A stretch of 64,000 nucleotides of DNA from Thermodesulfobacteriota bacterium (GTDB lineage Bacteria > Desulfobacterota > Binatia > Bin18). The notes under the pieces are model-generated. The model saw only the letters and a list, made by a program, of their open reading frames with translations, was not told the DNA's origin and searched no databases. Location: contig OZ219926.1 of the NCBI GenBank assembly GCA_964291405.2, positions 4,096,001 to 4,160,000 on the forward strand, in the 5' to 3' direction. A program made the position numbers and the translations under genes. Shown here one piece after another: positions 39,669 through 62,136 of the stretch (positions within the stretch are counted from its first letter, which is position 1; every line of letters begins with the position of its first letter).

Positions 39669-39696
39669 GGGCGACCGGCAAGTCACTCCCTATGGA

Positions 39697-45774: not shown

Positions 45775-46496
45775 AGCCTCTCGTCAACCCAAAAGATGGT
45801 AGTCTGCTCGTCCGCATCCCCGCGGGCGAATATTGCATGGGAAGCGAGAGCGGGACGCCGCCCGAACGTCCGGCCCACCGGGTCTCGCTGGGGAGTTTTT
45901 ATATTGCCCAACACCCGGTGACGAATGCCCAGTACCGGCAGTTTGTCATCGACACTGGCCATCGTGCACCCTATCTCGATGATGCCCGGGTGGAACGTGA
46001 GAATTGGGACCAGGAGCGCCACGCTCCGCCGGCGGGGCGAGAAGCCCATCCGGTGGTCTTGGTCAGCTGGCATGATGCCCAGGCCTACTGCGCCTGGGCC
46101 GAGGGCCGGCTGCCAACCGAGGCCGAATGGGAAAGCGCGGCCCGTGGCGGGTTAGAAGACAAGCCCTATCCGTGGGGAGATGGGATCAGTCGGGAGTTGG
46201 CAAATTATGATAATCGGGCCGGGACCACCCCGGTCGGGAGCTATCCGTCCAATCCCTATGGTCTGTATGACATGGCCGGTAACGTCTGGGAGTGGGTGGC
46301 CGACTGGTACGACCCGCAGTACTATACAGTCTCCCCGACCGAGGACCCGCAGGGCTCGGCGACCGGAACGGTTAAGGTGTTGCGCGGAGGAGCCTGGCTG
46401 CTCTTCCCCGAGTTTTGCCGGGTTGCCTACCGCTTCCGCAACAACCCCAATTTTCGCTTCAATCTGATTGGCTTTCGTCTGGCGAAATCGGCCTGA
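45771..46496 (+). CDS. Formylglycine-generating enzyme (FGE/SUMF1)-fold protein
   Basis: PVTNAQY, HPVVLVSW, RLPTEAEWE, YGLYDMAGNVWEW, RGGAW, GFRLA. Confidence 0.88.
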   Translation: MKPLVNPKDGSLLVRIPAGEYCMGSESGTPPERPAHRVSLGSFYIAQHPVTNAQYRQFVIDTGHRAPYLDDARVERENWDQERHAPPAGREAHPVVLVSWHDAQAYCAWAEGRLPTEAEWESAARGGLEDKPYPWGDGISRELANYDNRAGTTPVGSYPSNPYGLYDMAGNVWEWVADWYDPQYYTVSPTEDPQGSATGTVKVLRGGAWLLFPEFCRVAYRFRNNPNFRFNLIGFRLAKSA

Positions 46497-47952
46497 GCAG
46501 ACCCTCTTGATACAACTGGGCCAGGACCTGACGGACCTGGGCAGGCGGGCTCTGCCGCCCGTCGGGATGCCGCTGATAGGCGGCCAGGATATCCACAACG
46601 GCACGCTGCGTCTGCACGCAGCGCAGCAGGGTCGGGACATTGACTCCGGACAGAAAGCGCAGGCCGCGTGGGTAACGTGGAGTCACAACCGCGGGCCGGA
46701 GCTCAACATACGAGCCTTCGATAACAGGCCGCTCCTGGATACGCAGGTCAGGCGTTACCATTACGTGTGAAACCGGCTGGGAATCAAATGGAGAAAAGGC
46801 CGTGGACGGCTGCTGCGGAGCGGCGGGACCCGCGTCGGGCTCAAGGCGCAGGCAACGGTGCTGCCAAAAGGGACGGTCCGGCCAGCGACCCTCTTCCGCG
46901 TAATAGCGGGCCGATTGTTGATAGTGGCTGCGATAGGTGTCTCGCTGACCGGCTTCGTACAGCTCGGCAGCCTGGGACTGCATGACGGGCCGCTGGAGTA
47001 TGGTGTTGACAACCACGGCGCCGGTAATGGCGGATGCCATGGCTTTCCGGACTCCCTCCGAGGACAAGGGATCAATGAACAGGCCGGCGTCACCGACGAG
47101 GAGGGTGCGGCCGGCGACAAACTGCCGCGCGGTATACAGGCTGGCATCAAAAACCTGAGGTGGGTGGGGAAGGTGCGCGTCAGCCAGAAAACCCGAGACA
47201 TAGGCCGCCTTGCGGAGCTCCTCGATATAAAAGCGCTGTAGTCCGACCCGCTTTATGGCGTGGCTGTGTCGCCAGTCAAGCAGCAGCGTGACATTCCGCT
47301 CGCCCGTGTGCAGCGGGACTGACCAGACCATGCCGTCCGCATAGGCTTCAAGCAGGGTGTTGGCGAAGTCTACGCCGGGTGGATTCCCCGCGTTTTGCCA
47401 ATAGCCCGTCAGGGCCAGGGTCTGGAAGACACTGTCCCGCTGGCGCAGGTTGTGGCGGGCGTATATGCCCGCGTGGCCGGTCGCATCAACACAGAATTCC
47501 GCCCGAATGCGCTCTCTCGAACCATAGCGGACGGTCACGCCGTGTTCCCCGTCAGGCCGGACGTCTCGCACCGGTTGTCCTTCCACAACCCGGACACCGG
47601 CCTGGCGAGCCTGATTGAGCAGAATCAGGTCAAAGTCGGCGCGCACAGACTGAAACCCGCGCCGGTGGTGATCCGAGCTGTAATACGCGGTACGCGGTCG
47701 AGGCGAGCCCCAACACACGCTGTGGCCAGACATCCGCAGAAAGCCGGCCTGTTCCACCTGCGTCCGGACACCCAGAAAGTCGAGCAGGGGGAGGATACTC
47801 GGGGTCAGGGACTCTCCAATCTGGTGCCGTGGAAAACGGCGCTTCTCAATAAGCACGACCCGATAGCCGAAGCCCGCGAGTTGGTGGGCGATAGTCGCTC
47901 CGGCCGGACCGCCGCCAGCAACTACGATGTCTGCTGCGGAAGGGAGTGTCAC
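46459..47952 (-). CDS. qhpG: FAD-dependent monooxygenase, QhpG-like (CTQ biogenesis Trp hydroxylase)
   Basis: GGGPAG, DATG, GDAGLFIDPLSSEG; C-terminal RPVIEG...VVTPRYPRG...QLYQEGL domain like QhpG; adjacent to the qhp cluster. Confidence 0.75.
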   Translation of the reverse strand: MTLPSAADIVVAGGGPAGATIAHQLAGFGYRVVLIEKRRFPRHQIGESLTPSILPLLDFLGVRTQVEQAGFLRMSGHSVCWGSPRPRTAYYSSDHHRRGFQSVRADFDLILLNQARQAGVRVVEGQPVRDVRPDGEHGVTVRYGSRERIRAEFCVDATGHAGIYARHNLRQRDSVFQTLALTGYWQNAGNPPGVDFANTLLEAYADGMVWSVPLHTGERNVTLLLDWRHSHAIKRVGLQRFYIEELRKAAYVSGFLADAHLPHPPQVFDASLYTARQFVAGRTLLVGDAGLFIDPLSSEGVRKAMASAITGAVVVNTILQRPVMQSQAAELYEAGQRDTYRSHYQQSARYYAEEGRWPDRPFWQHRCLRLEPDAGPAAPQQPSTAFSPFDSQPVSHVMVTPDLRIQERPVIEGSYVELRPAVVTPRYPRGLRFLSGVNVPTLLRCVQTQRAVVDILAAYQRHPDGRQSPPAQVRQVLAQLYQEGLLRPISPDESQSD

Positions 47953-48099
47953 GTCAGACTGCCAATGGCGAATCGTAGAATTGTTGCTTGGAGCTTATGC
48001 CGTCGGATCAGGAAGAGCAACACGAGGGCCGTGTCTATTTCGTCTCCGGCCAAGCTGCTGTACAGTCGGCCTGGTATTCGTCCTCTCAGGACTGTCGCT

Positions 48100-49839
48100 A
48101 TGCATATTGCCTCGGTACTCTCCCGTTTCTATCGGCTGTCGCCCTTTGTGAAGCCGTATGTGCGCAGAATCGGTTTCATCTTCCTCCTGTCCTCCTTTGG
48201 CACCGTTCTCGGTCTGCTCTGGCCGTTGTTTACCAAAATCCTGATTGACGATGTTTTGCTCGCACGCAACATATCGCTCTTGGTGACGCTGTGCGGGATC
48301 ATGCTGGGTGTCACGCTGCTCGGTTATGGGGTAGGGGCGATCAATCGCTATCTCTACACCCAGGTTACGGCACGCGTTTTATTTGCGCTCAGACAGCACC
48401 TCTTCGCCCATTTGCAGAAGCTCTCTCTCCGCTTCCATACCCAGGTCAAAGTGGGCGATCTCCTGTCGCGCCTGAATACCGATATTGCCGAGATTCAGTC
48501 CGTCCTCACCGACGCGGCCTTCACCTTTGTCACCAATATCTTCGTCCTGCTGGCAACCGTGGGATTTCTCATCTGGCTCAACTGGCGGCTCTTTCTGGTC
48601 AGCCTGCTCGTTATCCCGCTCCAAATATATGGGGTACGCAAAATACAGCCGTATATGGTCGAGGAAACCCGCAAGGTGCGCGAGTTGAACGCCTCGATTT
48701 CCGCCTTTCTGGTTGAGTCCCTGTCGGCCATCAAATTCGTCAAGCAGTTTGGTGCGGAGCCTACCCAATTGGGGCGTTTGGGCCGACTGGGTCAACGCTT
48801 TGTTGCGCTGGTGACACGGTTTGAAATGATCGGCTATATCGGCAGCACGACCGCGACGGCTACGACGTTTCTGGGCAGTACCCTGGTCACCCTCTACGGG
48901 GGCTATCTGGTGATTGAGGGCCAGATGAGTATTGGCAGTCTGGTTGCCTTCGCCGCCTACCAGTCGCGCGCCTTCAGTCCTATCCAGGTTCTAATGGACC
49001 TGTACCTACGCATCGAGCGGGCTGGCGTGTCCGTGGACCGGGTGTTCGAGTTTCTGGATATCGGACAGGAATATACCGAGCCGTCCGGCGGGACCTTACG
49101 CCCCGAAGGGCTACACGGGGAGATCGAATTTCGTGACGTATCGTTCGGCTATCAGACCAACGCTCCGGCCAGTCAGCCGGTGTTGCGTCAGGTGAGTTTT
49201 CTGGTGGGGGCCGGGCAGCGCCTGACCGTTCTGGGACCGAGCGGAACGGGCAAGTCCACGCTCGTCGACCTCCTGATACGGCTGTATGAGCCCCAGGCCG
49301 GGACCATCTGCCTGGACGGTCATGACGTGAGGGAGTTGGACCTGGTATGGCTACGTCAACATGTGGTCGTCATCGGCCACGAGCCCTTTCTATTTCACGC
49401 CTCGATTCTGGAAAACGTGTCGTACGCCAGCCCGGAGGCAAGCCGCGAAGAGATCGTTGCGGCGGTCACAGCAGTTGGCCTGCACGAGTATGTGACCACG
49501 TTGCCTGACGGTTACGAGACCACTGTGGGCGAACGGGGCACGCGCCTGTCGGCCGGACAGCGTCAGCGCATTGCCCTGGCCCGCGCCCTGCTCAAAAAGC
49601 CCCGGATTCTGGTGCTGGACGAAGCCCTGTCCGGCCTTGATGTCGAAAGCGAAGCCGACCTCCGTCAGACCTTGTCTGCGGTGATGCGAGGCTGCACGAC
49701 ACTCGTGGTGACCCATCGGTTGAGCTCTCTCCACGCCGACGATGCGGTTGTCGTGCTTAAGCACGGCGCGGTCGAGTGGCAGGGAACTTACCGGGAACTG
49801 ATCCGAGCGCCTGACATCTTACAGGCCGCCACCGGGTAG
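48100..49839 (+). CDS. qhpF: ABC exporter (TMD+NBD), QhpF-like
   Basis: TM domain, GPSGTGKST, LSAGQRQR, LVLDE; qhp context. The start is ATG 48100, not 47395. Confidence 0.75.
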   Translation: MHIASVLSRFYRLSPFVKPYVRRIGFIFLLSSFGTVLGLLWPLFTKILIDDVLLARNISLLVTLCGIMLGVTLLGYGVGAINRYLYTQVTARVLFALRQHLFAHLQKLSLRFHTQVKVGDLLSRLNTDIAEIQSVLTDAAFTFVTNIFVLLATVGFLIWLNWRLFLVSLLVIPLQIYGVRKIQPYMVEETRKVRELNASISAFLVESLSAIKFVKQFGAEPTQLGRLGRLGQRFVALVTRFEMIGYIGSTTATATTFLGSTLVTLYGGYLVIEGQMSIGSLVAFAAYQSRAFSPIQVLMDLYLRIERAGVSVDRVFEFLDIGQEYTEPSGGTLRPEGLHGEIEFRDVSFGYQTNAPASQPVLRQVSFLVGAGQRLTVLGPSGTGKSTLVDLLIRLYEPQAGTICLDGHDVRELDLVWLRQHVVVIGHEPFLFHASILENVSYASPEASREEIVAAVTAVGLHEYVTTLPDGYETTVGERGTRLSAGQRQRIALARALLKKPRILVLDEALSGLDVESEADLRQTLSAVMRGCTTLVVTHRLSSLHADDAVVVLKHGAVEWQGTYRELIRAPDILQAATG

Positions 49840-49861
49840 TGTTCGCACTTTTTCTCGCCTC

Positions 49862-50575
49862 TCACGTGTGACTCGTCTGTTGGAGATAGGTCCGGGCGGT
49901 TTCTGGCGTCAAGTCTGGGTGGCGCTCGGCCCGGAGGGCGAGCGTAGCGGCAATATGCGCTGAGGCAAAACTATGGCCGTAAAAGTTCTGCGTCTGGGCC
50001 GGGCCGGGCAGGGGGCGTGGATAGGGATGGGCACGAAAGGGAACCGGGCTGTCTGTGAGGGCGCGGTATTCGTCCCACGCGCAGCTTTCATCTGCGGCCA
50101 CGCCTATGACGCCGGGTAAGGTTGCGGGTAACACATCCGAGCGGTCCGGGGGAGAAGACGCAATCAGGATGAGCTTTGCTTCTTGTGCTTGGGCGACCAG
50201 GGCCGAGAGCGGCTGGCGATGCTGCGCGTTAATCATTCCCAGACTCAGACTGATGATTTTCATGCGCTGTCCAATGGCCCAGCCCAAGGCCGCTTCCAGA
50301 ACCGGAAATGAAGTGGCCAGATGGTCCGTAAAAATCTTAACCGCGTAGAGCTCGGCTTGGGGAGCTTTGGCACGGACCACCCCGGCGAGGGCGGTCCCGT
50401 GCCCGATGTGATCGGGGTACTCCGGGCTGGTCTGGACCTCGTTCTCCTCGTTCAAGAAAAAATGGATGCCGCCCGCGACGCTGCCAACATGCGAATGCTG
50501 GGCATTCACCCCGCTGTCGATAAGCGCGACTTTAACCCCCGCCCCGGTCGGCGCCCCGTCCCTGTCCTGACCCAT
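49862..50575 (-). CDS. qhpE: Short S8 subtilisin-like leader peptidase, QhpE-like
   Basis: VALIDSGV (Asp), HIGHGT (His), GHSFAS (Ser); no pro-domain or signal peptide. Confidence 0.8.
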   Translation of the reverse strand: MGQDRDGAPTGAGVKVALIDSGVNAQHSHVGSVAGGIHFFLNEENEVQTSPEYPDHIGHGTALAGVVRAKAPQAELYAVKIFTDHLATSFPVLEAALGWAIGQRMKIISLSLGMINAQHRQPLSALVAQAQEAKLILIASSPPDRSDVLPATLPGVIGVAADESCAWDEYRALTDSPVPFRAHPYPRPLPGPAQTQNFYGHSFASAHIAATLALRAERHPDLTPETARTYLQQTSHT

Positions 50576-50660
50576 GCCTTGTCCCTTGTAAGCAAAGCAT
50601 ACCAAATATGCCCGTTTATGCGAGGGAGAAAATGGTATCTACAACTCCGGTTCTTTCCAT

Positions 50661-50688
50661 TTGACTCTCACTCAGAGAGGTATAGAAT
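50661..50688 (+). promoter_or_regulatory. Putative sigma70 promoter of qhpA1
   Basis: TTGACT, 16-nt spacer, TAGAAT; a CTCTC-n5-GAGAG inverted repeat overlaps the spacer. Confidence 0.45.
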
Positions 50689-50744
50689 CCGGCTACTGCG
50701 TCAGAGATGGAGACCAGTGTTTCAGCCTGGAGGAGAGGACAGGT

Positions 50745-52424
50745 ATGACGACCGGAAAAACATGGAAACGTATGAGAAGGCACATCTGGGTATTGCTCGT
50801 GTTGGCGGGGCTCGTTGGCACGACCCATGATGTCAAGGCTGCGGAACACCAGGCGACGCCTTCCGCCCGAGAAACGTTGGTGATCCGCTGTATACGTTGC
50901 CACGCGCCGCAAGGAGAGAATGGCAAGCTTGACGCGATTGAAGCCCAGCGCAAGTCACCCGAAGGCTGGAGCATGACGCTCAGCCGTATGGTCCGAACGC
51001 ACGGGGTCGAATTGCAGGACGGAGATGCCCGCATTCTGGTCAAATATCTGAGCGATCACTACGGGCTGGCTCCCAAAGAAGTCGAGCCCTATCGCTTTAT
51101 TCTCGAACAGCGCAATACCCGCACCACGCAGGACGTGCCCAAGCCCCTCCAGGCTGGCTGTATCCAGTGCCATACCTACGCACGGATCGCCTTGCAGCGC
51201 CGGACGCAGGACTCGTGGGAGCGGCTGCCGGACGCCAAGGTCGCACTCATGGCGAATATCGGCAGTGAGACCGCCTCCGCCGGCCAGTTGAAGGATTATT
51301 GGTTTGATGATGCAAAGAAAGCTGCGGTGCCCCATCTGATCGAGCACCAGCCGTTTGAGACCGAAGCCTGGACGGCCTGGCAGGCGGCCAAAAAGCCGAG
51401 CTATGCCGGTACTTGGCTGGTGGTTGGCCATGACCCCGGCCGCGGCGGGGATTACACCGGGCAACTCACGCTGACCGCCGGGGAGGACGATCAATACACT
51501 GGCACATTTTCCTACACGTTTGCCGACGGCTCTCGGATGGAAGGCTCCACGACCGGGACGATATACACCGGCTTCCAGTGGCGCGGCGTTGCCCAAGCCA
51601 AGGAAAGTGGACCGGCCGGCCGGGAGATGCGACAGCGCGAGATTTTCTTTGCCTCCGAAGACGGGAACACCGTTTCCGGCCGGCGCTTGCTGACCAACCT
51701 CGGCGACCTGGGCATGAATGAAACCTGGTATCGCCGCCGGGGCGGGGCGCAGCTGCTGACGGTCAGTCCAGCCATGATCCAAACCGGCTCTCCCCAGACA
51801 GTAAATATTTTCGGGATGGGCTTCTCCGGGGACACGCTGTCGGCGGATAAAATTTCTTTTGGCGAGGGCGTGGGGGTGTTGTCCCTGCGGCTCGATGGCA
51901 ACCAGACGATTGTGGCGGAAGTCTTTGCCAAGGCTGGCGTGGCAGAAGGGCTGCGCACGGTCTCCATTCAAGGGGTGGCGGGAACGGGGCAGGTCGCGGT
52001 CTACGAGGCGGTCGATTACATCCGCATCACGCCGGAACGGGGCTTCGCCCGGCCCGGCGGCATTCGGACGCCAAAAATTTTTCAGCAGTACGAAGTGGTA
52101 GGCTATGCGAACGGCCCGGATAACGCCAAGGGCACGGACGACGATGTCAAGCTGGGACGGATCGGCCCGGTCAAGTGGAATCTGGAAGAGTACGTGAAAC
52201 GTCCGAACGACGACGATATTCAGTATGTCGGTGCGGTCGACCAAACCGGCCTGTTTCACCCCAACGAGGATGGGCCGAATCCCAAACGCCACCTGATGGA
52301 AGGTAATGTGGGCGATGTCTGGGTGGAAGCCTGGTATACGCCCGAGGGCGAAAAACGACCCATGGGCGCGCGCGCCCACTTATTAGTGATGCCGGCCAAG
52401 TTTGTCTTCCCACCGATTGAATAG
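50745..52424 (+). CDS. qhpA: Quinohemoprotein amine dehydrogenase alpha subunit (diheme c), copy 1
   Basis: CIRCH and CIQCH, QRKSPEGWSMTLSRM, YTGFQWRG, GPNPKR, PPIE; AGGAGAGG SD. Confidence 0.92.
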   Translation: MTTGKTWKRMRRHIWVLLVLAGLVGTTHDVKAAEHQATPSARETLVIRCIRCHAPQGENGKLDAIEAQRKSPEGWSMTLSRMVRTHGVELQDGDARILVKYLSDHYGLAPKEVEPYRFILEQRNTRTTQDVPKPLQAGCIQCHTYARIALQRRTQDSWERLPDAKVALMANIGSETASAGQLKDYWFDDAKKAAVPHLIEHQPFETEAWTAWQAAKKPSYAGTWLVVGHDPGRGGDYTGQLTLTAGEDDQYTGTFSYTFADGSRMEGSTTGTIYTGFQWRGVAQAKESGPAGREMRQREIFFASEDGNTVSGRRLLTNLGDLGMNETWYRRRGGAQLLTVSPAMIQTGSPQTVNIFGMGFSGDTLSADKISFGEGVGVLSLRLDGNQTIVAEVFAKAGVAEGLRTVSIQGVAGTGQVAVYEAVDYIRITPERGFARPGGIRTPKIFQQYEVVGYANGPDNAKGTDDDVKLGRIGPVKWNLEEYVKRPNDDDIQYVGAVDQTGLFHPNEDGPNPKRHLMEGNVGDVWVEAWYTPEGEKRPMGARAHLLVMPAKFVFPPIE

Positions 52425-52462
52425 CATGGTAGGGGTATAGGGACGGACTCTGGGAGGGCATA

Positions 52463-53926
52463 ATGGAATTACACTTCCGTGCGGAAAACGCCCACGCTAT
52501 AACGGAGGGCAACCAGAACATTCTGGTTGCGGCCAAAAGCATGTCCATGTTTGTCATGGACCCGGTCTCCCAGGCCGTCCTCGATTATGTGCAGGCGCAT
52601 CCGCACGCGATCCAGGAAGAGCTGACCGCCAGTCTGGCCGAGCACTTCCCGCTGGCCGAAATAACCGAGACGATCCAGGAATTTATCACCTTAGAAATCC
52701 TGCAAACCCAGGAGCGTTCCGCTACTCCCGCTCCCCTGCCGGTGCTCGACGTCGAGCATTTCCCGGTGAGTTCGCTCGTTGTCAACGTGGCCAATAAGTG
52801 TAACCTCCACTGCACCTACTGCTACGAACCCGAGGGGGCGAAATACGGCCCGTCGCCGGTCCAGATGGACTGGGAGACCGCGCGCGACAGCGTCGATTTT
52901 CTGTTCAAGAAGTCCGGCGCCAGCAAAGAGGTCAATTTGATTTTCTTTGGCGGAGAGGCGCTGCTGAACTTCAAGCTCATGCGTCGGACCGTCGCCTATG
53001 CGGAAGAAAAGGCCCAGGCCGAAGACAAGGTCGTCGACTTTTCGCTCACGACCAACGGAACGCTCTTAACCGACGAGGTAATCGACTTTTTCCAGGCCCA
53101 TCGCTTTGGCGTGACCATCAGCATTGATGGTCCCAAAGACCTGCACGACAAGCGGCGCGTTTTTCTTACAAAGCGGGGCGAACAGAAAGGCTCGTACGAT
53201 CTCTTACGGCCCCGCCTGGAACGCCTGCTGGAACGCTATACGGTCAGGCCGGTGGTCGCCCGGGTCACGGTCACAAAAGACGCCATCGATATCGTGCGCA
53301 CCTACGAGCATCTCACGCAGCTCGGTTTTTTTGAGGTTGGCTTTTCGCCGGTCACCGCCCAGGCCGAGACCGACTATGGCTTGGAGCCGGCCGATTTGCG
53401 TGAATTGCTGCGGCAGTTTCGCGAGCTTGGCGCGGTGTATATCGAGCGGGCGCTCAACCAGCAGTACACCGGGTTTTCAAATTTGAGCACCATGCTGACC
53501 GACATTCACCTGGGCACAAACAAGCTCTTTCCGTGCGGGGCCGGCCTGGGCCTGTTGGACGTGGACGGCAACGGTGATGTGTATTTATGTCATCGGTTTC
53601 CGGGCACCGAGGAACAAAAATACGGCAATGTCAAAGACGGCATTCAGTACGACCGGCTGAACGCCTTTATCAACGGTGCCCATCTGGGCAATAAGCCGGT
53701 ATGTCAGACCTGTTGGATTCGGGGCCTGTGCGGCGGCGGGTGCTACCACGAAGCCATGACCGAGTTTGGGGACACGGCACTGCCGAATCTGCACTACTGC
53801 GATTTCTTGCGGGAATGGACGGAATACGGCATTGGCGTGTATATGCAGTTGCAAGAACAAACCCCTGGGTTTGTCGAGCAGTATGTGTTACGCGGGCGTG
53901 GAGACGCCCCAAAAGAATTAACCTAA
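52463..53926 (+). CDS. qhpD: Radical SAM/SPASM thioether-forming maturase
   Basis: N-terminal RRE-like region, CNLHCTYC, FFGGE, SPASM CGAG...CH...CQTCWIRGLCGGGCYHE...YC. Confidence 0.92.
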   Translation: MELHFRAENAHAITEGNQNILVAAKSMSMFVMDPVSQAVLDYVQAHPHAIQEELTASLAEHFPLAEITETIQEFITLEILQTQERSATPAPLPVLDVEHFPVSSLVVNVANKCNLHCTYCYEPEGAKYGPSPVQMDWETARDSVDFLFKKSGASKEVNLIFFGGEALLNFKLMRRTVAYAEEKAQAEDKVVDFSLTTNGTLLTDEVIDFFQAHRFGVTISIDGPKDLHDKRRVFLTKRGEQKGSYDLLRPRLERLLERYTVRPVVARVTVTKDAIDIVRTYEHLTQLGFFEVGFSPVTAQAETDYGLEPADLRELLRQFRELGAVYIERALNQQYTGFSNLSTMLTDIHLGTNKLFPCGAGLGLLDVDGNGDVYLCHRFPGTEEQKYGNVKDGIQYDRLNAFINGAHLGNKPVCQTCWIRGLCGGGCYHEAMTEFGDTALPNLHYCDFLREWTEYGIGVYMQLQEQTPGFVEQYVLRGRGDAPKELT

Positions 53927-53939
53927 GGGAGAGTGTGGG

Positions 53940-54281
53940 ATGAAACACCTCAAGGCAGCGAACTCCAAGGCCCGGGCCGTCACCGCCAGTGTGGCACAAG
54001 CGACTTCCACCGAGGAAGACGTTATCGGGATGGCCCAACCCATCGGTTGTACGACGATCTTCAATCCGGGCTGGGAGGCGAATCCGTGGGGTGGAGCCAG
54101 CAGCATGTGCGCCCCCATGGAGGCCGACCTGCTGAGCTGTGCGAATCTGTGCTGGTGGCCGGCTCAGGTGCCGGACAGCCTCCAGAGTGCTCCCGAGTGG
54201 GCGAAAGGCTGCTCGGGCATGAATCAGGAAGACTGGCGCAACCTCGACGTTGTTTTCCCCAAGACCGATACGTCCGGATAA
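53940..54281 (+). CDS. qhpC: QHNDH gamma subunit (CTQ precursor), copy 1
   Basis: MKHLK leader (30 aa); core GC...PGWE...C-x-PMEADL..C...CWWPAQVPD with C7/E16, C27/D33, C37/W43 and C41/D49 conserved. Confidence 0.95.
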   Translation: MKHLKAANSKARAVTASVAQATSTEEDVIGMAQPIGCTTIFNPGWEANPWGGASSMCAPMEADLLSCANLCWWPAQVPDSLQSAPEWAKGCSGMNQEDWRNLDVVFPKTDTSG

Positions 54282-54306
54282 ACGCAGCGGGCGGAAGGAG
54301 CCGGTG

Positions 54307-55398
54307 GTGCACGGGAAAAACAGGCCGCTGCTGGGGGGTGTGCTCTTTGTGTTCGGACTGCTGGTCCTGCCGCAGACGACCTGGGCCAAGTGGTACCTCC
54401 TGGCCAGCACGCATCCCAACAACCTGGTCGTCGTCGATACCGAAACCGACACGGTGGTCAAAGACATTGCCCTTGAGGGTCGTGGGCCGGCGCTCTATAT
54501 CGCGCCAAACCCGGCCCAGCCGCAGTTCGCCTATGTCGTAAATAATCTGGCCAAAAGCGTTGCCATGGTCGATCTGGACGAGGGCAAGCAGGTCAAAAGC
54601 TTTGACTTGTCGAGCGACAACGAGCTCGTACGCACCATGGCGATCGATGTGAACATGCAGGGCACCCGGCTGTTCGTGCACGAAATGCCGGTTCAGCAAG
54701 ACATGGGCCGCTATACGGCCCGGGACAACCGGATACGGGTCATTGACCTGGAGACCAATGAGACGCTGACCACGTTTACCGCTCCCCGCCAGGTGATGGG
54801 ATTAGCCTCTTCAAAAGACGGCAAACGCCTCTATCTGTTCAGCGTCGGTCAGGACATTTTTGTGCACAGCACGGAAGACGGCAGCCTACTCGATGTCATT
54901 CCGCTGGCAAACCGCAACATCAGCGGCATTGCGAGAACCGACGGCCTGCCGCTCGGCGGGACCTATCAGGAAAGCGGCCACCTCGTCTCTTTCGGGACCT
55001 TCACCACCGATTCCATCACCAATCAGGTGACGCTCGGTATCGGCTCTCTCGACCTGACTCAGGAAGACCCGGAACTGAAGGTCGTTGAATTGCAGCCTTT
55101 TGTCGAAGGCGATTATGTGCTCACGGGTGCGCTGTCGCCGCATACGAACAAGGCCTATTTCGCATACAACAGTTTGTGGAAGGTTGACCCGAAAACCCGT
55201 CACATTGAGAAAAAGGTGTCGCTGTCCAACACCTATTTTGCGCCGCTCGTTCACCCCGAAGGCAAGAAGGTCTACTGCGGCAGCAACTGGCACGATGTCG
55301 CGGTCTACGACGCGGAATCACTCGACCTGATCACCAAAGTCCCCCTGGGCCATTCGCAGACCGGAGGGGTCAGTGTCTTGCGGTTTGTGAATCGTTAG
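54307..55398 (+). CDS. qhpB: QHNDH beta subunit (beta-propeller), copy 1
   Basis: Signal peptide, HPNNLVVVD, PRQV, propeller repeats; follows qhpC. GTG start after AAGGAG. Confidence 0.85.
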   Translation: MHGKNRPLLGGVLFVFGLLVLPQTTWAKWYLLASTHPNNLVVVDTETDTVVKDIALEGRGPALYIAPNPAQPQFAYVVNNLAKSVAMVDLDEGKQVKSFDLSSDNELVRTMAIDVNMQGTRLFVHEMPVQQDMGRYTARDNRIRVIDLETNETLTTFTAPRQVMGLASSKDGKRLYLFSVGQDIFVHSTEDGSLLDVIPLANRNISGIARTDGLPLGGTYQESGHLVSFGTFTTDSITNQVTLGIGSLDLTQEDPELKVVELQPFVEGDYVLTGALSPHTNKAYFAYNSLWKVDPKTRHIEKKVSLSNTYFAPLVHPEGKKVYCGSNWHDVAVYDAESLDLITKVPLGHSQTGGVSVLRFVNR

Positions 55399-55406
55399 CG
55401 CCCGGT

Positions 55407-56039
55407 ATGTCTCGGACGATACTTACCCGCCGAAATGTTCTCCAGGGGATCGGCACCGCCGCCCTTCTCGGCCAGGCGTACAGTCTGGCGCATGCCGTTG
55501 AAAAAGGCGACGCCGCCAGCTTCGCCTCGGTTGTGAAACGCCGGCGCATGATCCGTAAGTACGAGGACAGGCCGGTCCCTGAAGAAGAGATCCGAGCGCT
55601 GCTGCGCTACGCCGTGCGTGCGCCCAGCGCGGGGAATCTACAGCCGTGGGAGTTTATTCTGGTGCGTGACACCGAGGTCCGAGACCAACTCGCCAAGGCG
55701 GCGATGAATCAGAACTCGGTTGCCACCGCGCCGATTATTGTTGCCACCTGTGCCGATATCCAACGCATGGGTGAGAAATACGGCACGCGCGGCGCTTTTT
55801 ATAGTTTAGTGGATACCGCGTTTGCCTCATTACTCATTTTGTTAGGCGCAACCGAGCGCGGGCTCGGGGCCTGCTTTGTTGGCGCGTACAATCCGGAAGA
55901 AGTCGCCAAGATATTGCAACTGCCCAGCCACGTCCGTCCGGTCGGACTCATCACCCTCGGTTATCCTGCGGAAAAGCCACGCAAACCGACGAACAAGAAA
56001 ATCCCGCTCGAGAACCTGATCCACGAGAATACGTGGTAG
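55407..56039 (+). CDS. Nitroreductase-family flavoprotein with Tat-like signal
   Basis: TRRNVL...AHA signal; RRMIRKY, APSAGNLQPWEF, GLGACFVG, LGYP. Confidence 0.85.
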   Translation: MSRTILTRRNVLQGIGTAALLGQAYSLAHAVEKGDAASFASVVKRRRMIRKYEDRPVPEEEIRALLRYAVRAPSAGNLQPWEFILVRDTEVRDQLAKAAMNQNSVATAPIIVATCADIQRMGEKYGTRGAFYSLVDTAFASLLILLGATERGLGACFVGAYNPEEVAKILQLPSHVRPVGLITLGYPAEKPRKPTNKKIPLENLIHENTW

Positions 56040-56190
56040 GCGCGGGAATCGTATCCCTCTTATTTTTTGTTACACAGGAGGCTTGTCTGTTGACAGTGCT
56101 TTTTGTAGTGGACTATAGGCGGTAGTAGGTGTTGAGCACAGGTGAGGACGAGCGAAGAGTGATTGCAGGGCTGTAATGGAGGGCATGATC

Positions 56191-57840
56191 ATGAACGCTA
56201 TATGGGGGAGACGTGGTCGACTAAGCGGATACCTCTTGAGCCTCTTCTTGGGCTTCACGCTCTGTTTTGCAGGACAACCCGCGTGGAGCCAGGAGATGAC
56301 CGGGCCGGCTTTGCTGGAGACGCGTTGCTCGGGTTGTCATCCTCCTCATGAAGAAGGGGGCAAGCTTGACGCGATCGAACATCAGCGCAAGCCCCCCGAA
56401 GCCTGGGAGATGACTATCTATCGCATGTTGCGCACCCACGGAGCGAATCTGGAAGCGGGTGAGGCTCGCATCCTGATCAAATACCTGAGCGATCAGTATG
56501 GCCTGGCACCGGCGGAAGTCAAACCCTTTCGGTATGCCTTAGAGAAACGGAACAATACGATAGAAAAACATGTTCCCAAGGAAGTGAAGGGCACCTGTGT
56601 GGCCTGTCACTCCTATGCGCGGATCGCCCTGCAGCGCCGTACGCCCGAATCGTGGGGGCGTCTGCCGGACCTGACCGCGGCCTTGCTGCCGAATATCGAA
56701 AACCAGGTCGCCTCAACGGGGCTGCTGGGCGACTTCTGGTACACGCTGGTGCGGAAGGATACCGTCCCCTATCTGGCGCAGACCTATCCGTTTGACTCAG
56801 CCTCTTGGAGGCAGTGGCAGGCCAAGCCCAAACCGGACTACGCCGGGGTCTGGAATGTGGTCGGTCACGACCCTGGAAAGGGCGGGGCCTACACCGGCCG
56901 GATGACGCTGACCGCGTCGGGGAACGATAACTACGAGGGCCAGCTCGCGTATGACTTTGCCGATGGGTCGCGTATGACCGGGAAAAACACTGTGACGATG
57001 TATACCGGCTTCCAGTGGCGGGGTGTGGCCGAGGTCGAGGGCGGCAAGACCCACAAAGAAATCTTTTTTGCCAATGAGGACGGAACGGTCGTAAGCGGGA
57101 GGCGGTTGCTGACGCTTGTTGGCGATCTGGGCATGGAAGAGACCTTATACCGGAATACGGGCCAGGCAAAATTTTTGGCCGTCAGCCCGGCCGCGCTCAA
57201 AGTCGGCGAGCGCTCCACGCTCAGGCTGTTTGGCATGAACCTCCCCGAGTCCCTGACCGCGGCTTCGATCTCTCTGGGAACGGGTGTGACGGTTCAGTCT
57301 CTGCGGAGGGTTGATGCTGATACGGTCATGGCCGACGTGGTAGTGGGGAAAAAGGCAAAAGTAGGCGCTCGACAGGCTCGGATTCGGGGAGTTGATGGGG
57401 AACAGTCGCTGGCCGTCTACGATACGGTTGACTATATCCGTCTCTCTCCGGAACAGGCGTTTTCTCGGCCTGGTGGCATTCGCACCCCCAAAATTTTTCA
57501 GCAGTTTGAGGCGGTCGGATATACAAATGGTCCGGACGGACGAAAGGGAACTGACGACGATATGAAGCTGGGACGTGTCGGTCCGGTGACGTGGAAGCTG
57601 AACGAGTACGTGCGGCGCGTCAATGATGACGATGTGCGCTTTGTCGGTGCCATGGATGCCCACGGTCTTTTTACGCCGGCCGAGGACGGTCCAAATCCAA
57701 AACGGCACTTGCAGCAGGGCAATGTCGGCGATGTCTGGGTGGAGGCCTGGTATCGGCCAAATGGCGCCCGTCGGCCTATGGGAGCGCGCGCCCACCTGCT
57801 GGTCATGCCGGCAAAGTATAATTTTCAACCGATTGAATAG
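56191..57840 (+). CDS. qhpA: Quinohemoprotein amine dehydrogenase alpha subunit, copy 2
   Basis: CSGCH and CVACH, QRKPPEAWEMTIYRM; colinear with copy 1. Start could be 56176, 56185 or 56191. Confidence 0.92.
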   Translation: MNAIWGRRGRLSGYLLSLFLGFTLCFAGQPAWSQEMTGPALLETRCSGCHPPHEEGGKLDAIEHQRKPPEAWEMTIYRMLRTHGANLEAGEARILIKYLSDQYGLAPAEVKPFRYALEKRNNTIEKHVPKEVKGTCVACHSYARIALQRRTPESWGRLPDLTAALLPNIENQVASTGLLGDFWYTLVRKDTVPYLAQTYPFDSASWRQWQAKPKPDYAGVWNVVGHDPGKGGAYTGRMTLTASGNDNYEGQLAYDFADGSRMTGKNTVTMYTGFQWRGVAEVEGGKTHKEIFFANEDGTVVSGRRLLTLVGDLGMEETLYRNTGQAKFLAVSPAALKVGERSTLRLFGMNLPESLTAASISLGTGVTVQSLRRVDADTVMADVVVGKKAKVGARQARIRGVDGEQSLAVYDTVDYIRLSPEQAFSRPGGIRTPKIFQQFEAVGYTNGPDGRKGTDDDMKLGRVGPVTWKLNEYVRRVNDDDVRFVGAMDAHGLFTPAEDGPNPKRHLQQGNVGDVWVEAWYRPNGARRPMGARAHLLVMPAKYNFQPIE

Positions 57841-57930
57841 GGATTGAACAAACCCTGGCGTTAGAGCGAGCAGTATGCTACGAGGCTGGGAGGAGACGCG
57901 AGAGTTTCCGGTCAGCGCAAGGAGGGCGTG

Positions 57931-58263
57931 ATGAAACACCTCAAGGCCGCGAACCATAAAGCGCATAGAGTCGAGACCGCCCCCGCGGCCAAACGGCAGG
58001 TGCCGGAAGACGTTCTGGGCATGGCCCAGCCGATGGGCTGCACCACGATTTTTAACCCCGGCTGGGAGGCGAACCCCTGGGGCGGCACCGCGGGCATGTG
58101 CGCGCCAATGGAGGCTGACCTGCTCGGCTGTGCCAATGTGTGTTGGTGGCCGGCTCAGGTGCCCGACAGCCTGCAAAACTACCCGGAGTGGGCCAGTGCC
58201 TGTTCGGGTGTCAACGCCGAGGACTGGCGTAGCTTGGAGCTGGTCTTCCCCGAGAAGAAATAG
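57931..58263 (+). CDS. qhpC: QHNDH gamma subunit (CTQ precursor), copy 2
   Basis: MKHLKAAN leader (30 aa); same Cys/Asp/Glu/Trp pattern as copy 1; AAGGAGG SD. Confidence 0.95.
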   Translation: MKHLKAANHKAHRVETAPAAKRQVPEDVLGMAQPMGCTTIFNPGWEANPWGGTAGMCAPMEADLLGCANVCWWPAQVPDSLQNYPEWASACSGVNAEDWRSLELVFPEKK

Positions 58264-58315
58264 CCGCAGAGTACCGTCTCAAAATCCGTGCGGTGAATAA
58301 CGAGGGGTTTCCAGT

Positions 58316-59140
58316 ATGAACCCTGGGCAAAGACAGCGTCTGTGGAGCCGAGGCGTTTTCTTTGCGGGACTGTTCCTGCTCCTGCACGGGTTCCCTCCGC
58401 TCGTTGAGGCGGACTGGTATATCGCCTCGACAACCATCCCACCGAACTCCTCCGCTTCTGCTTGGCGTCCTCCTCAGGTTGTGACGCGTGTTGCCCGGAA
58501 CCGACTGACCTACGAGACCCGAGCCTGGACGCAAATTATCGACCTCAACACGCAGCAGCTCTCGATTATCAGCCATCTGGGACAGGTGTACTGGCAGGGA
58601 CCAATCGAGGCCTACGCCACGGTTATGGCAGCGCGCACCCAGGAACGGCGGGCGCAGGCGGAACGCTTGATGAACCAGCTCCCTCATGGGCCACAACAAT
58701 TCGTGACAAGACGAGCCGGTCCGTTTGATAGCCTGAGCCCCAGGCTGACGATTACGATCACCCCGATGTCGGAGACCGAGTCGGTCGCCGGGTATACGGC
58801 TCACAAATATCGTATCCAGCGGAACGGCATCGCGTATGAAGAAACCTGGTTGGCTGAGAAGATCAAGCTGGGGACGGATGTTGATATGTCCCGGCTGAAC
58901 GCGTTTATCGACAAGCTGCAAACTTCTCGAACGACGCCGCCAGGAGCTGTGCTCGCCGAATTAACCGAGCTGATCAATATAGGCTACCCAGTCAGGACCG
59001 TGAACCTGGTCACCCAGGTGGTCAAGGAAGTGGTCCAGGCCGAGCAGCGGCCGATTCGGGCTGAGGTATTTATGGTGCCGGATGGCTATACCAAAAAGGC
59101 GCTGGTCGAGATCATGTTTCCAACAAGGAGGCGTTTATGA
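58316..59140 (+). CDS. Exported DUF4412-like protein
   Basis: Signal peptide ending VEA; ETESVAGYTAHKY...EETWL, GYPVR, FMVPDGY; ATGA overlap with qhpB2. Confidence 0.6.
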   Translation: MNPGQRQRLWSRGVFFAGLFLLLHGFPPLVEADWYIASTTIPPNSSASAWRPPQVVTRVARNRLTYETRAWTQIIDLNTQQLSIISHLGQVYWQGPIEAYATVMAARTQERRAQAERLMNQLPHGPQQFVTRRAGPFDSLSPRLTITITPMSETESVAGYTAHKYRIQRNGIAYEETWLAEKIKLGTDVDMSRLNAFIDKLQTSRTTPPGAVLAELTELINIGYPVRTVNLVTQVVKEVVQAEQRPIRAEVFMVPDGYTKKALVEIMFPTRRRL

Positions 59141-60240
59141 AGGGCAAGAGTCTGTTATGGGCAGTGTCAACGCTGAGTGCGCTGGTCCTCGTTTGTAGTC
59201 TACCCGGCCTGGTGTGGGCCAAATGGTATATCCTGACCGGCGCCCATCCGAACTCCGTGTATGTGATTGATGCGGAAACCGATACGGTCGTGAAGACCAT
59301 CCCGCTTGAGGGAAAAGGGCCCATCTTTACCGTGGCGCCGAATCCAGCCCGACCCCAGTTCGCCTATGCGGTCACCAACCTCAGCCAAAGCGTGGCCCTG
59401 GTTGACCTGGACGAGGGAAAAGAGGTCCTGCGCTTTAATCTCTCCAACGACAACGAACTGGTCAGGACCATGGCCATTGATGTCAACCCGCAGGGCAATC
59501 GCCTCTACATCCATGAAATGCCGTTGAAGAAAGACCTGGGCAAATACGAGATACTGGAGACCCGCATCCGAGTCATCGATCTGGACACCAATACGGTCGC
59601 CAATGTGTTCCCCGCCCCCCGTCAGGTGATGGCGCTGGCGTCGTCCCAAGACGGGAAAAAGCTGTACGCCTTTAGCGTGGGCAGAGATATCTCGGTGCTG
59701 AATCCAGAGACGGGTCAGGTCGAGGACGTTATCCCCATGGCGGACTGGAACGTGACCGGCGCCGGCAAGCTGGAGGGACTGCCCTTGTGGAACCCCTATC
59801 AGGAAAACGACTACCTGGCCTCGTTTGCCGTGTATATGACGGACACGATTACCCAGCATGCCACCGTTGGAGTAGCCACCCTTGACCTCAAGCAGGCCAA
59901 TCCGGAGCTGCAAGTGGTTGAGCTTCAGCCCTATGAGGCCGAATGGTGGACGGCCCACGGGGCGGTATCGGCCAAAACCCAGAAGGCCTATCTCGGCTGG
60001 GACAAGCTGTGGAAGATGGATATCGCGACGCGCCAGATGGAAGAAGTGAGGCAGTTCGACACCAACAGTGTCTTCGGCTCTTTTCTCCATCCCGATGGGA
60101 CCAAAGTCTACTGCGGTGGAAACTGGAGTGCGTTGTCCGTGTTTGACGCCGACACGCTCAAGCCTCTCAAGAAGATTGATCTGGGGCACTCCCAAGCCGG
60201 TGCGGGTATCCGGTTTGTCAACCGCGAGAATGGGTTCTAA
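59137..60240 (+). CDS. qhpB: QHNDH beta subunit, copy 2
   Basis: Signal peptide, HPNSVYVID, PRQVMAL; clear paralog of 54307-55398. Confidence 0.85.
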   Translation: MKGKSLLWAVSTLSALVLVCSLPGLVWAKWYILTGAHPNSVYVIDAETDTVVKTIPLEGKGPIFTVAPNPARPQFAYAVTNLSQSVALVDLDEGKEVLRFNLSNDNELVRTMAIDVNPQGNRLYIHEMPLKKDLGKYEILETRIRVIDLDTNTVANVFPAPRQVMALASSQDGKKLYAFSVGRDISVLNPETGQVEDVIPMADWNVTGAGKLEGLPLWNPYQENDYLASFAVYMTDTITQHATVGVATLDLKQANPELQVVELQPYEAEWWTAHGAVSAKTQKAYLGWDKLWKMDIATRQMEEVRQFDTNSVFGSFLHPDGTKVYCGGNWSALSVFDADTLKPLKKIDLGHSQAGAGIRFVNRENGF

Positions 60241-60282: not shown

Positions 60283-61449
60283 GTGCTGATGCAATACGAT
60301 CTACTCCTCAAAGGCGGTCAGGTCATTGACCCCGGCTGGCCGCAGTACCACACACTCCAGCCCGCAGATGTGGCGATTCGGAACGGCAAGATAGCGGCCG
60401 TCGCCGCCGACATCCCCGCAGACCAAGCGGCCCGCGTGCGCGAGGTGTCCGGTCATATTGTCTGTCCTGGGTTGATCGACATTCACGCCCACACCTTTGT
60501 GAACGCCCACGATATGGGCGCCGAAACCGATCGGCGCTGTGCCGCGAGTGGGGTGACCACGCTGATTGACGCCGGCAGCGCCGGTTCAGCCACCTTCCCC
60601 GGACTGCGGCAGTATGTGGCCAATACGAGCGAAGTCCGGCTGCGCTGTTTCATTCATCTGTCAGCCCTGGGTCTGATTCACCTTCGGGTCGGAGAGCTGA
60701 TGCATATGGACTATGCCGACCCTGAGGGCTGTGCGCGCACGATTGCGGACAACCGCGACCTTGCCATAGGCGTCAAGCTGCGCTTCAGCAATAACGTCGT
60801 GCCGGACGCCGCCGGGACCGAACCGCTGCGTCTCGCCCGCCAGGCGGCCGATATGGCAGGCGTGCCATTGATGGTGCATATTACCGACGCGCTGCTGCCG
60901 GTCCCGCGGATTTTAGAATTCCTCAAGCCGGGCGATGTGGTGACCCACTGCTTCCACGGGTTTGCATACGGCATCATGGGACCGGAAAAGAAAGCCATTC
61001 TCAAAGAAGTCTGGGCGGCCCAGAAAGAGGGGATTATTTTTGACTGCGCGCACGGGCGCATGCACTTTCCGTTTCCGTTTGTCCGGCAGGCCCTGGACGC
61101 GGGATTTTTGCCCGACACGATCGCGACCGACCTGACGCTCCCCAGCGCGACCAGAGGGCCGGTCTTTGATCTGCCGACGACCATGTCCAAGCTCCTCAAC
61201 CTGGGCATGAGTCTGGAAGACGTGATCCGCTGCGTTACCACCAATCCCGCCCGCGTGATCGGGGAGGCTGAGCAAATTGGAACGCTCAGGCCCGGTGCCA
61301 CTGCCGATGTCGCCGTGCTCAGCCTTGAACAGGGAGAATTCGACTTTGTCGATACCGACCAGAACCATATGACCGGCGAGAAAAAGCTAGTCGCCCAGCT
61401 AACGGTCAAAGATGGACGGGTGTGGTATCAGGCCGACCGAGCGAGATAA
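60283..61449 (+). CDS. Amidohydrolase/deacetylase family metallohydrolase (dihydroorotase-like)
   Basis: PGLIDIHAH, DAGSAG, GVKLR, MVH, THCFH, TIATD. Confidence 0.85.
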   Translation: MLMQYDLLLKGGQVIDPGWPQYHTLQPADVAIRNGKIAAVAADIPADQAARVREVSGHIVCPGLIDIHAHTFVNAHDMGAETDRRCAASGVTTLIDAGSAGSATFPGLRQYVANTSEVRLRCFIHLSALGLIHLRVGELMHMDYADPEGCARTIADNRDLAIGVKLRFSNNVVPDAAGTEPLRLARQAADMAGVPLMVHITDALLPVPRILEFLKPGDVVTHCFHGFAYGIMGPEKKAILKEVWAAQKEGIIFDCAHGRMHFPFPFVRQALDAGFLPDTIATDLTLPSATRGPVFDLPTTMSKLLNLGMSLEDVIRCVTTNPARVIGEAEQIGTLRPGATADVAVLSLEQGEFDFVDTDQNHMTGEKKLVAQLTVKDGRVWYQADRAR

Positions 61450-61658: not shown

Positions 61659-62120
61659 ATGGCCGGAAAGCATTTTGAAGAACTGAACGTTGGGGATGTC
61701 TTTCAGCATCAACCCGGACGCACGATTACCGAGACGGATAACCTGTTGTTCTCGACCATGACCCACAACCCCCAGCCGCTCCATCTGGATGAAGAGTTCT
61801 CCAAGAAAGCCGAGTTTGGCCAACGCCTGGTGAACAGTATCTACACCCTGGGGCTTGCGGTCGGCCTGTCTGTCGGCGATACCACCCTGGGAACGACGGT
61901 CGGTAATCTGGGCTTTGAAAAAGTCGTCTTCCCCAAGCCTGTTTTTATTGGGGATACCCTGTACGCCGAGTCCGAAGTTGTCGAGAAGCGAGAATCGCGT
62001 TCCCGTCCGCAGTGGGGGATCGTGACCTTCGAGCACCGGGCCAGGAACCAGCGGGGCGAGATTGTGATGAGCTGCCGCCGGGGTGCCATGATGCGCAAAA
62101 AAGAGGCCCAGATTTCATAG
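61659..62120 (+). CDS. MaoC family dehydratase
   Basis: [24 protein letters not shown]. Confidence 0.88.
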
Positions 62121-62136
62121 CGAGAGAGGGGAGAGT

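Follow-up and report, generated by a model that had tools for sequence, protein, structure and literature searches.

The biogenesis of quinohemoprotein amine dehydrogenases (QHNDHs), the diheme enzymes that carry a cysteine tryptophylquinone (CTQ) cofactor in their gamma subunit, was elucidated in a single organism, where each maturation set goes with one gamma subunit. The qhp operon was reported in more than 1300 species, with a variable gene order, and QhpD, QhpE, and QhpG were reported to be single-turnover enzymes; loci with several gammas go unmentioned in the accessible part of that paper (Oozeki 2021). We analyzed a stretch of 64,000 nt from a Binatia genome (assembly GCA_964291405.2, contig OZ219926.1, positions 4,096,001 to 4,160,000), hereafter called the window, and all coordinates given below are positions in it. 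We found there a genuine twin QHNDH locus from an uncultured lineage, in which two alpha/beta/gamma sets lie next to one shared maturation set.

The locus covers positions 46459 to 60240, in the order qhpG (minus strand), qhpF (plus), qhpE (minus), then module 1 (qhpA1-qhpD-qhpC1-qhpB1-nitroreductase), a 136-bp spacer, and module 2 (qhpA2-qhpC2-DUF4412-like gene-qhpB2). Proteins were assigned by NCBIfam and Pfam profile searches with curated cut-offs and by alignment to the solved enzymes 1JJU and 1JMX. QhpG, QhpE, QhpD, both alpha subunits (QH_alpha), and both gamma subunits (QH_gamma) passed their NCBIfam equivalog cut-offs, and the putative identity of qhpF relies on its position and on synteny with other qhp loci. 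Reading of the open reading frames (ORFs), the profile matches, and the alignments to solved enzymes confirmed the gene map and the coordinates of an earlier annotation of this DNA, which we call the original prediction.

Searches of the whole genome (4.95 Mb in 3 contigs, estimated to be 97.5% complete) retrieved two gamma and two alpha genes, all inside this locus, and a single copy of QhpD, which scored 549 bits, with the runner-up match at 71 bits. QhpG and QhpE each had one match over cut-off. The proposal that one qhpD/E/G set goes with two gammas thus holds genome-wide; QhpF is a generic ATP-binding cassette (ABC) exporter, and its copy number, hence its uniqueness, is beyond the reach of such family searches. 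The picture given by the genome is one maturation set for a pair of CTQ enzymes.

The two gamma precursors, QhpC1 and QhpC2, are 72% identical. As predicted, both have a 30-residue leader that starts with MKHLKAAN and ends with EDV(I/L)G before a Met, and alignment with the mature 1JJU and 1JMX chains places mature residue 1 at this Met. The N-terminal motif of the leader, of consensus MxHxKxxNxKA, recurs throughout the alignment of diverse gammas, and it plausibly explains how a single QhpD can serve several of them. Alignment to 1JJU_C and 1JMX_G showed that both gammas retain the crosslink residues Cys7, Glu16, Cys27, Asp33, Cys41, and Asp49, together with Cys37 and Trp43 of CTQ, and all eight residues were present in 111/111 gamma ORFs of the sampled loci (related loci are labeled L###, and the genomes checked G###). 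Loci that are nearly identical to this one come from Candidatus Binatia/Binatota metagenome-assembled genomes (identity to QhpC2: L033, 98%; L048, 96%; L034, 95%).

The alphas and betas of the two modules have diverged further, with 56% identity between QhpA1 and QhpA2 and 53% between QhpB1 and QhpB2. We built trees of the betas (102 rows) and the alphas (50 rows), the former with a quick IQ-TREE run that gave SH-aLRT support only. All Binatia-type betas formed one clade (38 rows, SH-aLRT 99, stem 0.75), within which the B2 clade (13 rows, support 100) takes in another family (G025) and another genus (L035 and L036), and the B1 clade (21 rows, support 99) takes in L039, L040, and L047. The same pattern was obtained for the alphas, with a Binatia clade of 36 rows (support 100) and an A2 clade with support 99. 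Both modules therefore fall inside a Binatia-specific clade, in agreement with the distinct subfamily that had been predicted. Since the A1/B1 and A2/B2 clades each include other Binatia genera or families, the duplication predates the genus and took place inside Binatia; the modules are old paralogs.

We then evaluated how the two modules are kept among relatives. By gamma count, module 1 was found in 24/24 other species of the genus and two gammas in 12/24, and the full twin layout was recovered by tblastn synteny in L014 to L017, L019, L020, and L034 (L048 being the same stretch as L017). In the 12 congeners with two gammas, all module-2 genes are intact except the A2 of G022. We calculated the ratio of nonsynonymous to synonymous substitution rates (dN/dS) against six congeners for 8 of 14 genes, an identity filter having dropped qhpG, qhpE, qhpA1, qhpB1, qhpC2, and the amidohydrolase gene located downstream. 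The values were low for qhpA2 (0.13 to 0.14), qhpB2 (about 0.05), and the DUF4412-like gene (0.15 to 0.21), as they were for the nitroreductase gene (0.10 to 0.16) and qhpD (0.05 to 0.08). Module 2 is under purifying selection and, because its low dN/dS goes together with a patchy presence among congeners, we regard it as a maintained but dispensable isoenzyme.

Both alphas carry the four domains of QHNDH alpha subunits (PF09098, PF14930, PF09099, and PF09100), and the two CxxCH motifs, like the Met of "RM", were found without exception (103/103 alphas). The two heme subdomains form an internal repeat, which can be aligned between CxxCH and the Trp of R(K/R)xPExW; 100/103 local repeat alignments had the CxxCH motifs in register, and most of them stop near that Trp. 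Seven residues past the Trp (position W+7), subdomain 1 has a Met in 103/103 alphas, and subdomain 2 has His in 65, Lys in 20 (A1 clade, L028, and L040), Thr in 12 (A2 clade), and Leu in 1, the remaining 5 being unparsed. We take the two QHNDH hemes to be His/Met and bis-His ligated, and from this and the symmetry of the repeat we infer that, in the known enzymes, heme II has the W+7 His of subdomain 2 (in "NFH") as its distal ligand. This position is occupied by Lys in QhpA1 and by Thr in QhpA2. If the ligand is correctly placed, both modules thus depart from the canonical enzyme, in different ways. The original prediction had seen the same kinds of departure in both modules, namely, a heme ligand, an extra Cys, and Asp-to-Asn changes: the heme change is real, its sameness is not (Lys in A1, Thr in A2), and the extra Cys and the Asn sites do not count as departures of this locus, as detailed below.

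The accessory genes track their modules, the nitroreductase gene going with module 1 and the DUF4412-like gene with module 2. The nitroreductase gene comes after qhpB1 in all the Binatia B1-type loci seen and was detected in 24/24 congeners, and a twin-arginine translocation (Tat) motif, (S/T)RRx(V/I/L/F)LQ, was found in those orthologues with a called ORF that extends to the N terminus, including those of other genera (L039, L040, and L047). The closest solved relatives of the protein are uncharacterized nitroreductases, such as 4DN2 (E = 4e-28), and no equivalog model matched it over cut-off (BluB, 83 bits versus 150). Homologues with 47 to 50% identity also occur in G029 and G039, two genomes without QHNDH. 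As for the DUF4412-like gene, it was found (E ≤ 1e-10) in 13/24 congeners, which are the 12 two-gamma genomes and G021, where a remnant of module 2 persists, and also in G025, next to a module-2-like locus; one weak match (27% identity) came from a genome without QHNDH. The family is narrow (29 hits, down to 37 to 39% identity), and its match to PF14371 covers the C-terminal part only. A sequence search of the PDB gave no match for this protein, its atlas neighbors were DUF4412 clusters at 0.94, and its AlphaFold2 model (pLDDT 73.7) had weak Foldseek similarities (TM 0.28 to 0.41) to PNGF-II (matched part), RseB, LolA, and VioE. A predicted complex of QhpB2 (residues 27 to 367) with the DUF4412-like protein (33 to 274) scored 0.01 for a mark of 0.32, which has no bearing on binding either way. 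Judged by its sequences, the Binatia clade appears to be altered at the heme II site and to have accessory proteins specific to the lineage.

The sharing of maturation genes is not unique to this locus. We counted QhpD in ten genomes with at least two gamma matches, and 8/10 had fewer QhpD than gamma genes, which shows sharing to be workable. Two gammas and one QhpD were found in G000, G001, G006, G025, and G336, and likewise in G274 and G329 (another family of the same phylum), where the one QhpD scored under cut-off. G333 (Bryobacterales, the genome of L088) has six gamma-model matches, comprising four full gammas and another one that a frameshift splits, for two full QhpD and a fragment; it holds the largest QHNDH gene family that we encountered. 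The last two genomes, G334 (Acidobacteriia) and G335 (Amphritea), have two gammas and two QhpD each. Our synteny survey of the best 80 related loci revealed A-C-B modules devoid of qhpD in three Binatia loci (L027, L035, and L036) and in L088, where the module sits beside a second one. It also revealed two sets with their own QhpD in L093 (Acidobacteriia) and a second alpha downstream in the Amphritea loci L071 and L100, followed in L100 by a QhpD. G025, from another Binatia family, combines L027 (on C15), a D-less A-C-B module of another type that falls outside the Binatia-specific clade in both trees, with L028 (on C22), a Binatia-type A-D-C-B-F-DUF4412 locus. Its two gammas are only ∼55% and 72% identical to QhpC2 and, as the genome has one QhpD, one maturase may serve both.

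We propose that the locus encodes two periplasmic QHNDH isoenzymes, matured by one shared cytoplasmic pathway and diverged in substrate range and/or electron output, and we put the probability of this reading at roughly 75%. The analysis established which genes are present, that the maturation genes occur once, and that the modules are paralogous and conserved; the scheme built on them would run as follows. QhpD would bind the conserved 30-residue leaders of QhpC1 and QhpC2 and install three Cys-to-Asp/Glu thioethers (C7-E16, C27-D33, and C41-D49 in Paracoccus numbering), QhpG would dihydroxylate Trp43, QhpE would cut off the leader after EDV(I/L)G, and QhpF would export the peptide. In the periplasm, each gamma would join its own diheme alpha and beta-propeller subunits, CTQ would be completed, and each enzyme would convert a primary amine into an aldehyde and ammonium, with electrons leaving through the hemes. 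The two modules would stem from a duplication early in Binatia, after which they would have diverged at the putative distal heme II ligand, which is Lys in A1 and Thr in A2, and gained different periplasmic proteins, a Tat-exported flavoprotein of the nitroreductase family for module 1 and a LolA-like DUF4412 protein for module 2. As the putative heme II ligand and the accessory proteins have diverged, the modules most likely have different substrate ranges and/or electron outputs. Module 1 would be the core enzyme of the genus, and module 2 an accessory isoenzyme kept in about half of the species.

Several points weigh against this proposal. As QhpD, QhpE, and QhpG are described as single-turnover enzymes in the accessible part of Oozeki 2021, one gene set for two substrates is stoichiometrically awkward. 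Neither alpha has the His that would be the distal ligand of heme II, and electron transfer may deviate from the Paracoccus scheme. Both betas scored under the curated cut-off of TIGR03907 (QhpB1, 173 bits; QhpB2, 181 bits; cut-off, 223), although both still match 1JJU_B (QhpB2 with an E value of 1.3e-35 over residues 31 to 363), and it is homology alone that points to amine oxidation as the probable activity of the Binatia QHNDHs. Two congeners have a damaged module 2: G021 keeps a remnant made of the DUF4412-like gene (219 aa) and qhpB2 alone (L025, 6315 to 8074), and the qhpA2 of G022 encodes 225 aa in which the first heme subdomain is fused in frame to domain IV (L018, 9134 to 9811). No AraC or helix-turn-helix (HTH) domain was found in the 26 flanking ORFs (24.7 to 45.8 and 61.7 to 64 kb), the part of the genome covered by that search. 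Finally, contigs of RNA libraries from 4 runs of 3 studies, labeled as sponge or marine metagenomes, fall on both modules, which speaks for the proposal and against one module being silent, but the runs were picked with positions 50661 to 60240 as the query, and the contigs neither prove transcription nor rank the genes. In X1 and X2, most of them have an identity of 99% or more. Over the runs, qhpG/F/E and the flanks have hardly any cover. In X1 and X6, zero contigs map to 45.5 to 50.3 kb (the upstream flank and qhpG/F/E), an absence that is no sign of silence of these three genes, and cover of the downstream flank is nil or slight in all four runs.

A joint reading extends the proposal to the gamma subunit. 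It would combine a fourth thioether, made by QhpD in most nonproteobacterial gammas, the two described here among them, with a His-to-Lys-to-Thr series at heme II of the Binatia enzymes and with the recruited helper proteins, so that the twins may depart from the canonical enzyme in crosslinks, redox output, and perhaps reaction; we consider it unlikely, if arguable. The extra (fifth) Cys of the gammas aligns with Ala61 of the Paracoccus denitrificans (Pd) chain and sits 6 to 7 residues ahead of the Asp of a "DW" motif, a spacing that falls in the 6 to 9 range of the three known Cys-to-Asp/Glu bridges. This Asp is found in 80/80 Cys-bearing gammas and in 25/31 Cys-less ones, and a comparison of the two groups revealed no acidic partner unique to the Cys-bearing gammas; we put forward a fourth thioether at this Cys as a hypothesis only. 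What had been predicted to be a departure of this locus turned out to be the majority state of the family, since the extra Cys is present in 80/111 gamma ORFs of the loci (a sample rich in close relatives) and in 32/43 representatives of 50%-identity clusters spanning the site, and is absent mainly from the crystallized proteobacterial type. The Asp-to-Asn sites fared similarly: Pd positions 12, 18, and 39 vary family-wide, none of them is a crosslink or CTQ residue, and Asn at these positions (37 to 44 of 111 gammas) is a mark of the Binatia type.

A disulfide between the extra gamma Cys and a beta Cys was dropped as a general explanation, as the 82 gamma-beta pairs comprised 31 Cys/Cys and 25 Cys/Ile, with no family-wide covariation; within Binatia, such a bond is possible. 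The Cys of the beta "VYCGG" motif was observed in 40/108 betas, all of the Binatia type, and the Paracoccus and Pseudomonas betas have a Leu there. We also noted genes for a VKOR-DsbA fusion protein and for another DsbA-like thioredoxin at 38062 to 40116, ∼6 kb upstream of the qhp genes.

Distinctly unlikely, in our view, is that the Binatia-clade enzymes are not ordinary amine dehydrogenases at all and catalyze another reaction or use another electron sink. For example, CTQ electrons could feed a reductive step of the Tat-exported flavoprotein, or an open-coordination heme in A2 could be catalytic. Such a role would fit the Lys and Thr of the Binatia A1 and A2 at W+7, where 65/103 alphas have His and where the Met of subdomain 1 is constant (103/103), as well as the linkage of a nitroreductase with a Tat signal to module 1 across Binatia genera; Oozeki 2021, in its accessible part, also suggests that the alpha hemes may join in the final oxidation of CTQ. 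However, the active-site frame of the gammas is unchanged (Asp33, Cys37 and Trp43 of CTQ, and all crosslinks), the role of the W+7 His as a ligand was itself deduced from repeat symmetry and from the His/Met and bis-His ligation assumed for the two hemes, and nitroreductase homologues (47 to 50% identity) exist in G029 and G039 without any QHNDH.

We attach a still lower probability to module 2 being a redundant duplicate on its way to loss, with module 1 as the only working enzyme and the twin state as a transient. Its absence from 12/24 congeners by gamma count, the G021 remnant (DUF4412 and qhpB2 only), the internally deleted qhpA2 of G022 (225 aa), and a methyltransferase cassette that landed at the module junction in many relatives would all be in line with such a decay. 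Yet the window, like L014 to L017, L019, L020, L033, and L034, has all four module-2 ORFs intact, and the dN/dS values of A2, B2, and DUF4412 are as low as those of the measured module-1 genes. Moreover, the A2/B2 clade spans other genera and another family, so that module 2 has been long kept, and RNA-library contigs fall on A2, C2, DUF4412, and B2 in all four runs.

That the subunits of the two modules mix into hybrid trimers, giving a combinatorial set instead of two enzymes, is highly improbable, since the alpha, beta, and gamma of each module share the same tree pattern and are lost together, as cognate sets would be, even though the gammas (72%) resemble each other more than do the alphas (56%) and the betas (53%) and both modules occur in the same RNA libraries.

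Features of the twin QHNDH locus and its direct neighbors (positions in the window)
Feature	Position	Strand	Match or content
FGE-sulfatase-domain protein, 241 aa	45771..46496	+	PF03781, 233.8 bits
qhpG, flavin monooxygenase, predicted to dihydroxylate the Trp of the CTQ precursor	46459..47952	-	NF049967, 287 bits (cut-off 240)
qhpF, ABC exporter (permease + ATPase)	48082..49839	+	PF00664 and PF00005, generic models only
qhpE, subtilisin-like leader protease	49862..50605	-	NF049966, 168.5 bits (cut-off 165)
qhpA1, module-1 diheme alpha subunit	50661..52424	+	TIGR03908, 419 bits (cut-off 274); 1JJU_A, E = 1.5e-68
qhpD, radical S-adenosylmethionine (SAM)/SPASM thioether maturase	52463..53926	+	TIGR03906, 549 bits (cut-off 453)
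qhpC1, gamma precursor 1 (30-residue leader and CTQ core)	53940..54281	+	NF037958, 130 bits (cut-off 50); 1JJU_C, E = 6e-26
qhpB1, module-1 beta-propeller subunit	54250..55398	+	TIGR03907, 173 bits (under cut-off 223)
Nitroreductase-family flavoprotein, Tat signal	55407..56039	+	PF00881, 113 bits
Inter-module spacer	56040..56175	+	TTGACA, 18 nt, TATAGG
qhpA2, module-2 diheme alpha subunit	56176..57840	+	TIGR03908, 450 bits (cut-off 274); 1JMX_A, E = 3e-80
qhpC2, gamma precursor 2	57928..58263	+	NF037958, 135 bits (cut-off 50); 1JJU_C, E = 1.7e-27
DUF4412-like periplasmic protein, N-terminal signal sequence	58316..59140	+	PF14371, 26.3 bits (cut-off 21.6)
qhpB2, module-2 beta-propeller subunit	59137..60240	+	TIGR03907, 181 bits (under cut-off 223)
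Amidohydrolase/deacetylase-family metallohydrolase	60283..61449	+	NF006689, 384 bits (cut-off 371)

Some starts differ from the ORF limits. The ORF of qhpF is open from 47395, with a likely start at 48082, and the likely starts of qhpA1 and qhpB1 are an ATG at 50745 and a GTG near 54307, respectively; qhpC2 has an ATG at 57931, and there is a 4-nt overlap between the start of qhpB2 and the DUF4412-like stop. A promoter and terminator scan did no better than on shuffled sequence (5 versus 4.6 and 17 versus 14.4). It placed a promoter-like site at 50661 to 50688, ahead of the likely qhpA1 start, and the TTGACA-18-TATAGG motif of the spacer fell short of the scan's own rule. Many relatives have a DNA methyltransferase cassette just past the nitroreductase gene, and hence between the modules where module 2 is present, of which the window has no copy. 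The cassette consists of a PF01555 protein with an N-terminal HTH and of an ORF of 171 to 214 aa on the opposite strand that belongs to no known family; it was seen in L017 (12124 to 14125), L018 (9962 to 11744), L016, L019, L020, L022, L026, L033, and L034. Together, the cassette at the junction and the spacer motif suggest that module 2 has its own promoter.

At the other end of the locus, a convergent gene overlaps the 3' end of qhpG and encodes a formylglycine-generating enzyme (FGE)-sulfatase-domain protein that has no signal peptide. This gene adjoins qhpG in the Binatia loci L016, L022, L024 to L026, L032, and L042 to L044, the last three being distant, and a role of the protein in CTQ biogenesis is conceivable. 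Weaker relatives were also observed after qhpE in two Blastocatellia loci (L081 and L094). The amidohydrolase gene, a candidate member of the system, is a conserved downstream neighbor that directly follows the nitroreductase gene where module 2 is absent (L031, L032, L039, and L040). Further downstream (61659 to 63039) are genes for a MaoC-like hydratase with a match to mesaconyl-CoA hydratase and for an aldolase resembling HpcH and the citrate lyase beta subunit, possibly part of a C2/C4 assimilation route.

If the proposed isoenzymes act as described, periplasmic amine oxidation, with release of ammonium and electrons, would be added to the predicted metabolism of Binatia; in the literature that we searched, no paper paired Binatota or Binatia with "amine dehydrogenase" or "quinohemoprotein". 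The use of one maturation set for two diverged gammas also allows one to ask how tolerant leader recognition is, how the stoichiometry is handled, and whether the conserved fifth Cys is modified.

Among the described systems, the QHNDH of Paracoccus denitrificans (qhpADCBEFGR; 1JJU and 1PBY) shares with the locus the three subunits, the four maturation and export genes, the thioether and CTQ residues, both CxxCH motifs, and the four alpha domains, with a leader of 28 residues there and 30 here. In contrast to Paracoccus, the locus has two alpha/beta/gamma sets per qhpD/E/F/G, an extra gamma Cys at Ala61, Asn at positions 12, 18, and 39, a Lys or Thr in place of the His of the alpha "NFH", betas that are at most 30 to 35% identical, two added accessory genes, and no adjacent AraC regulator among the flanking ORFs scanned. 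The Pseudomonas putida enzyme (1JMX and 1JMZ) is the best solved match of QhpA2 and has the same architecture, with the same differences as Paracoccus, and the Pseudomonas nitroreducens genome that we checked has one gamma and one QhpD.

Among peptides made by the ribosome and then modified posttranslationally (RiPPs), one maturase recognizing several leader-bearing substrates is the norm. The QhpD of the locus scored 309 bits on the model of PapB, which with CteB represents the ranthipeptide type of RiPP clusters. In the accessible part of a 2026 paper, QhpD is described as homologous to ranthisynthases and as using a RiPP recognition element (RRE) to engage the QhpC leader. Unlike in the ranthipeptide clusters, the products here are enzyme subunits and not secreted peptides, and QhpD, QhpE, and QhpG are reported to turn over once (Oozeki 2021, accessible part). 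Methylamine dehydrogenase (tryptophan tryptophylquinone [TTQ]) with MauG and the CTQ oxidases LodA and GoxA with LodB and GoxB are likewise tryptophylquinone enzymes that need dedicated maturation proteins, and QhpG also matched the LodB (147 bits) and GoxB (109 bits) models; the TTQ, LodA, and GoxA systems differ in subunit architecture and maturation chemistry and do without radical SAM thioethers, according to the accessible part of Oozeki 2021.

Other genomes with several gammas also parallel the twin locus. G334 and G335 have duplicated QhpD as well, unlike the genome studied here, and in G336 (Binatia) a distance of 1.7 Mb separates the D-less module from the maturation genes, whereas the two modules are adjacent here. 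G336, G025, G274, G329, and G333, with several gammas and fewer QhpD, follow the same sharing logic as the locus described here.

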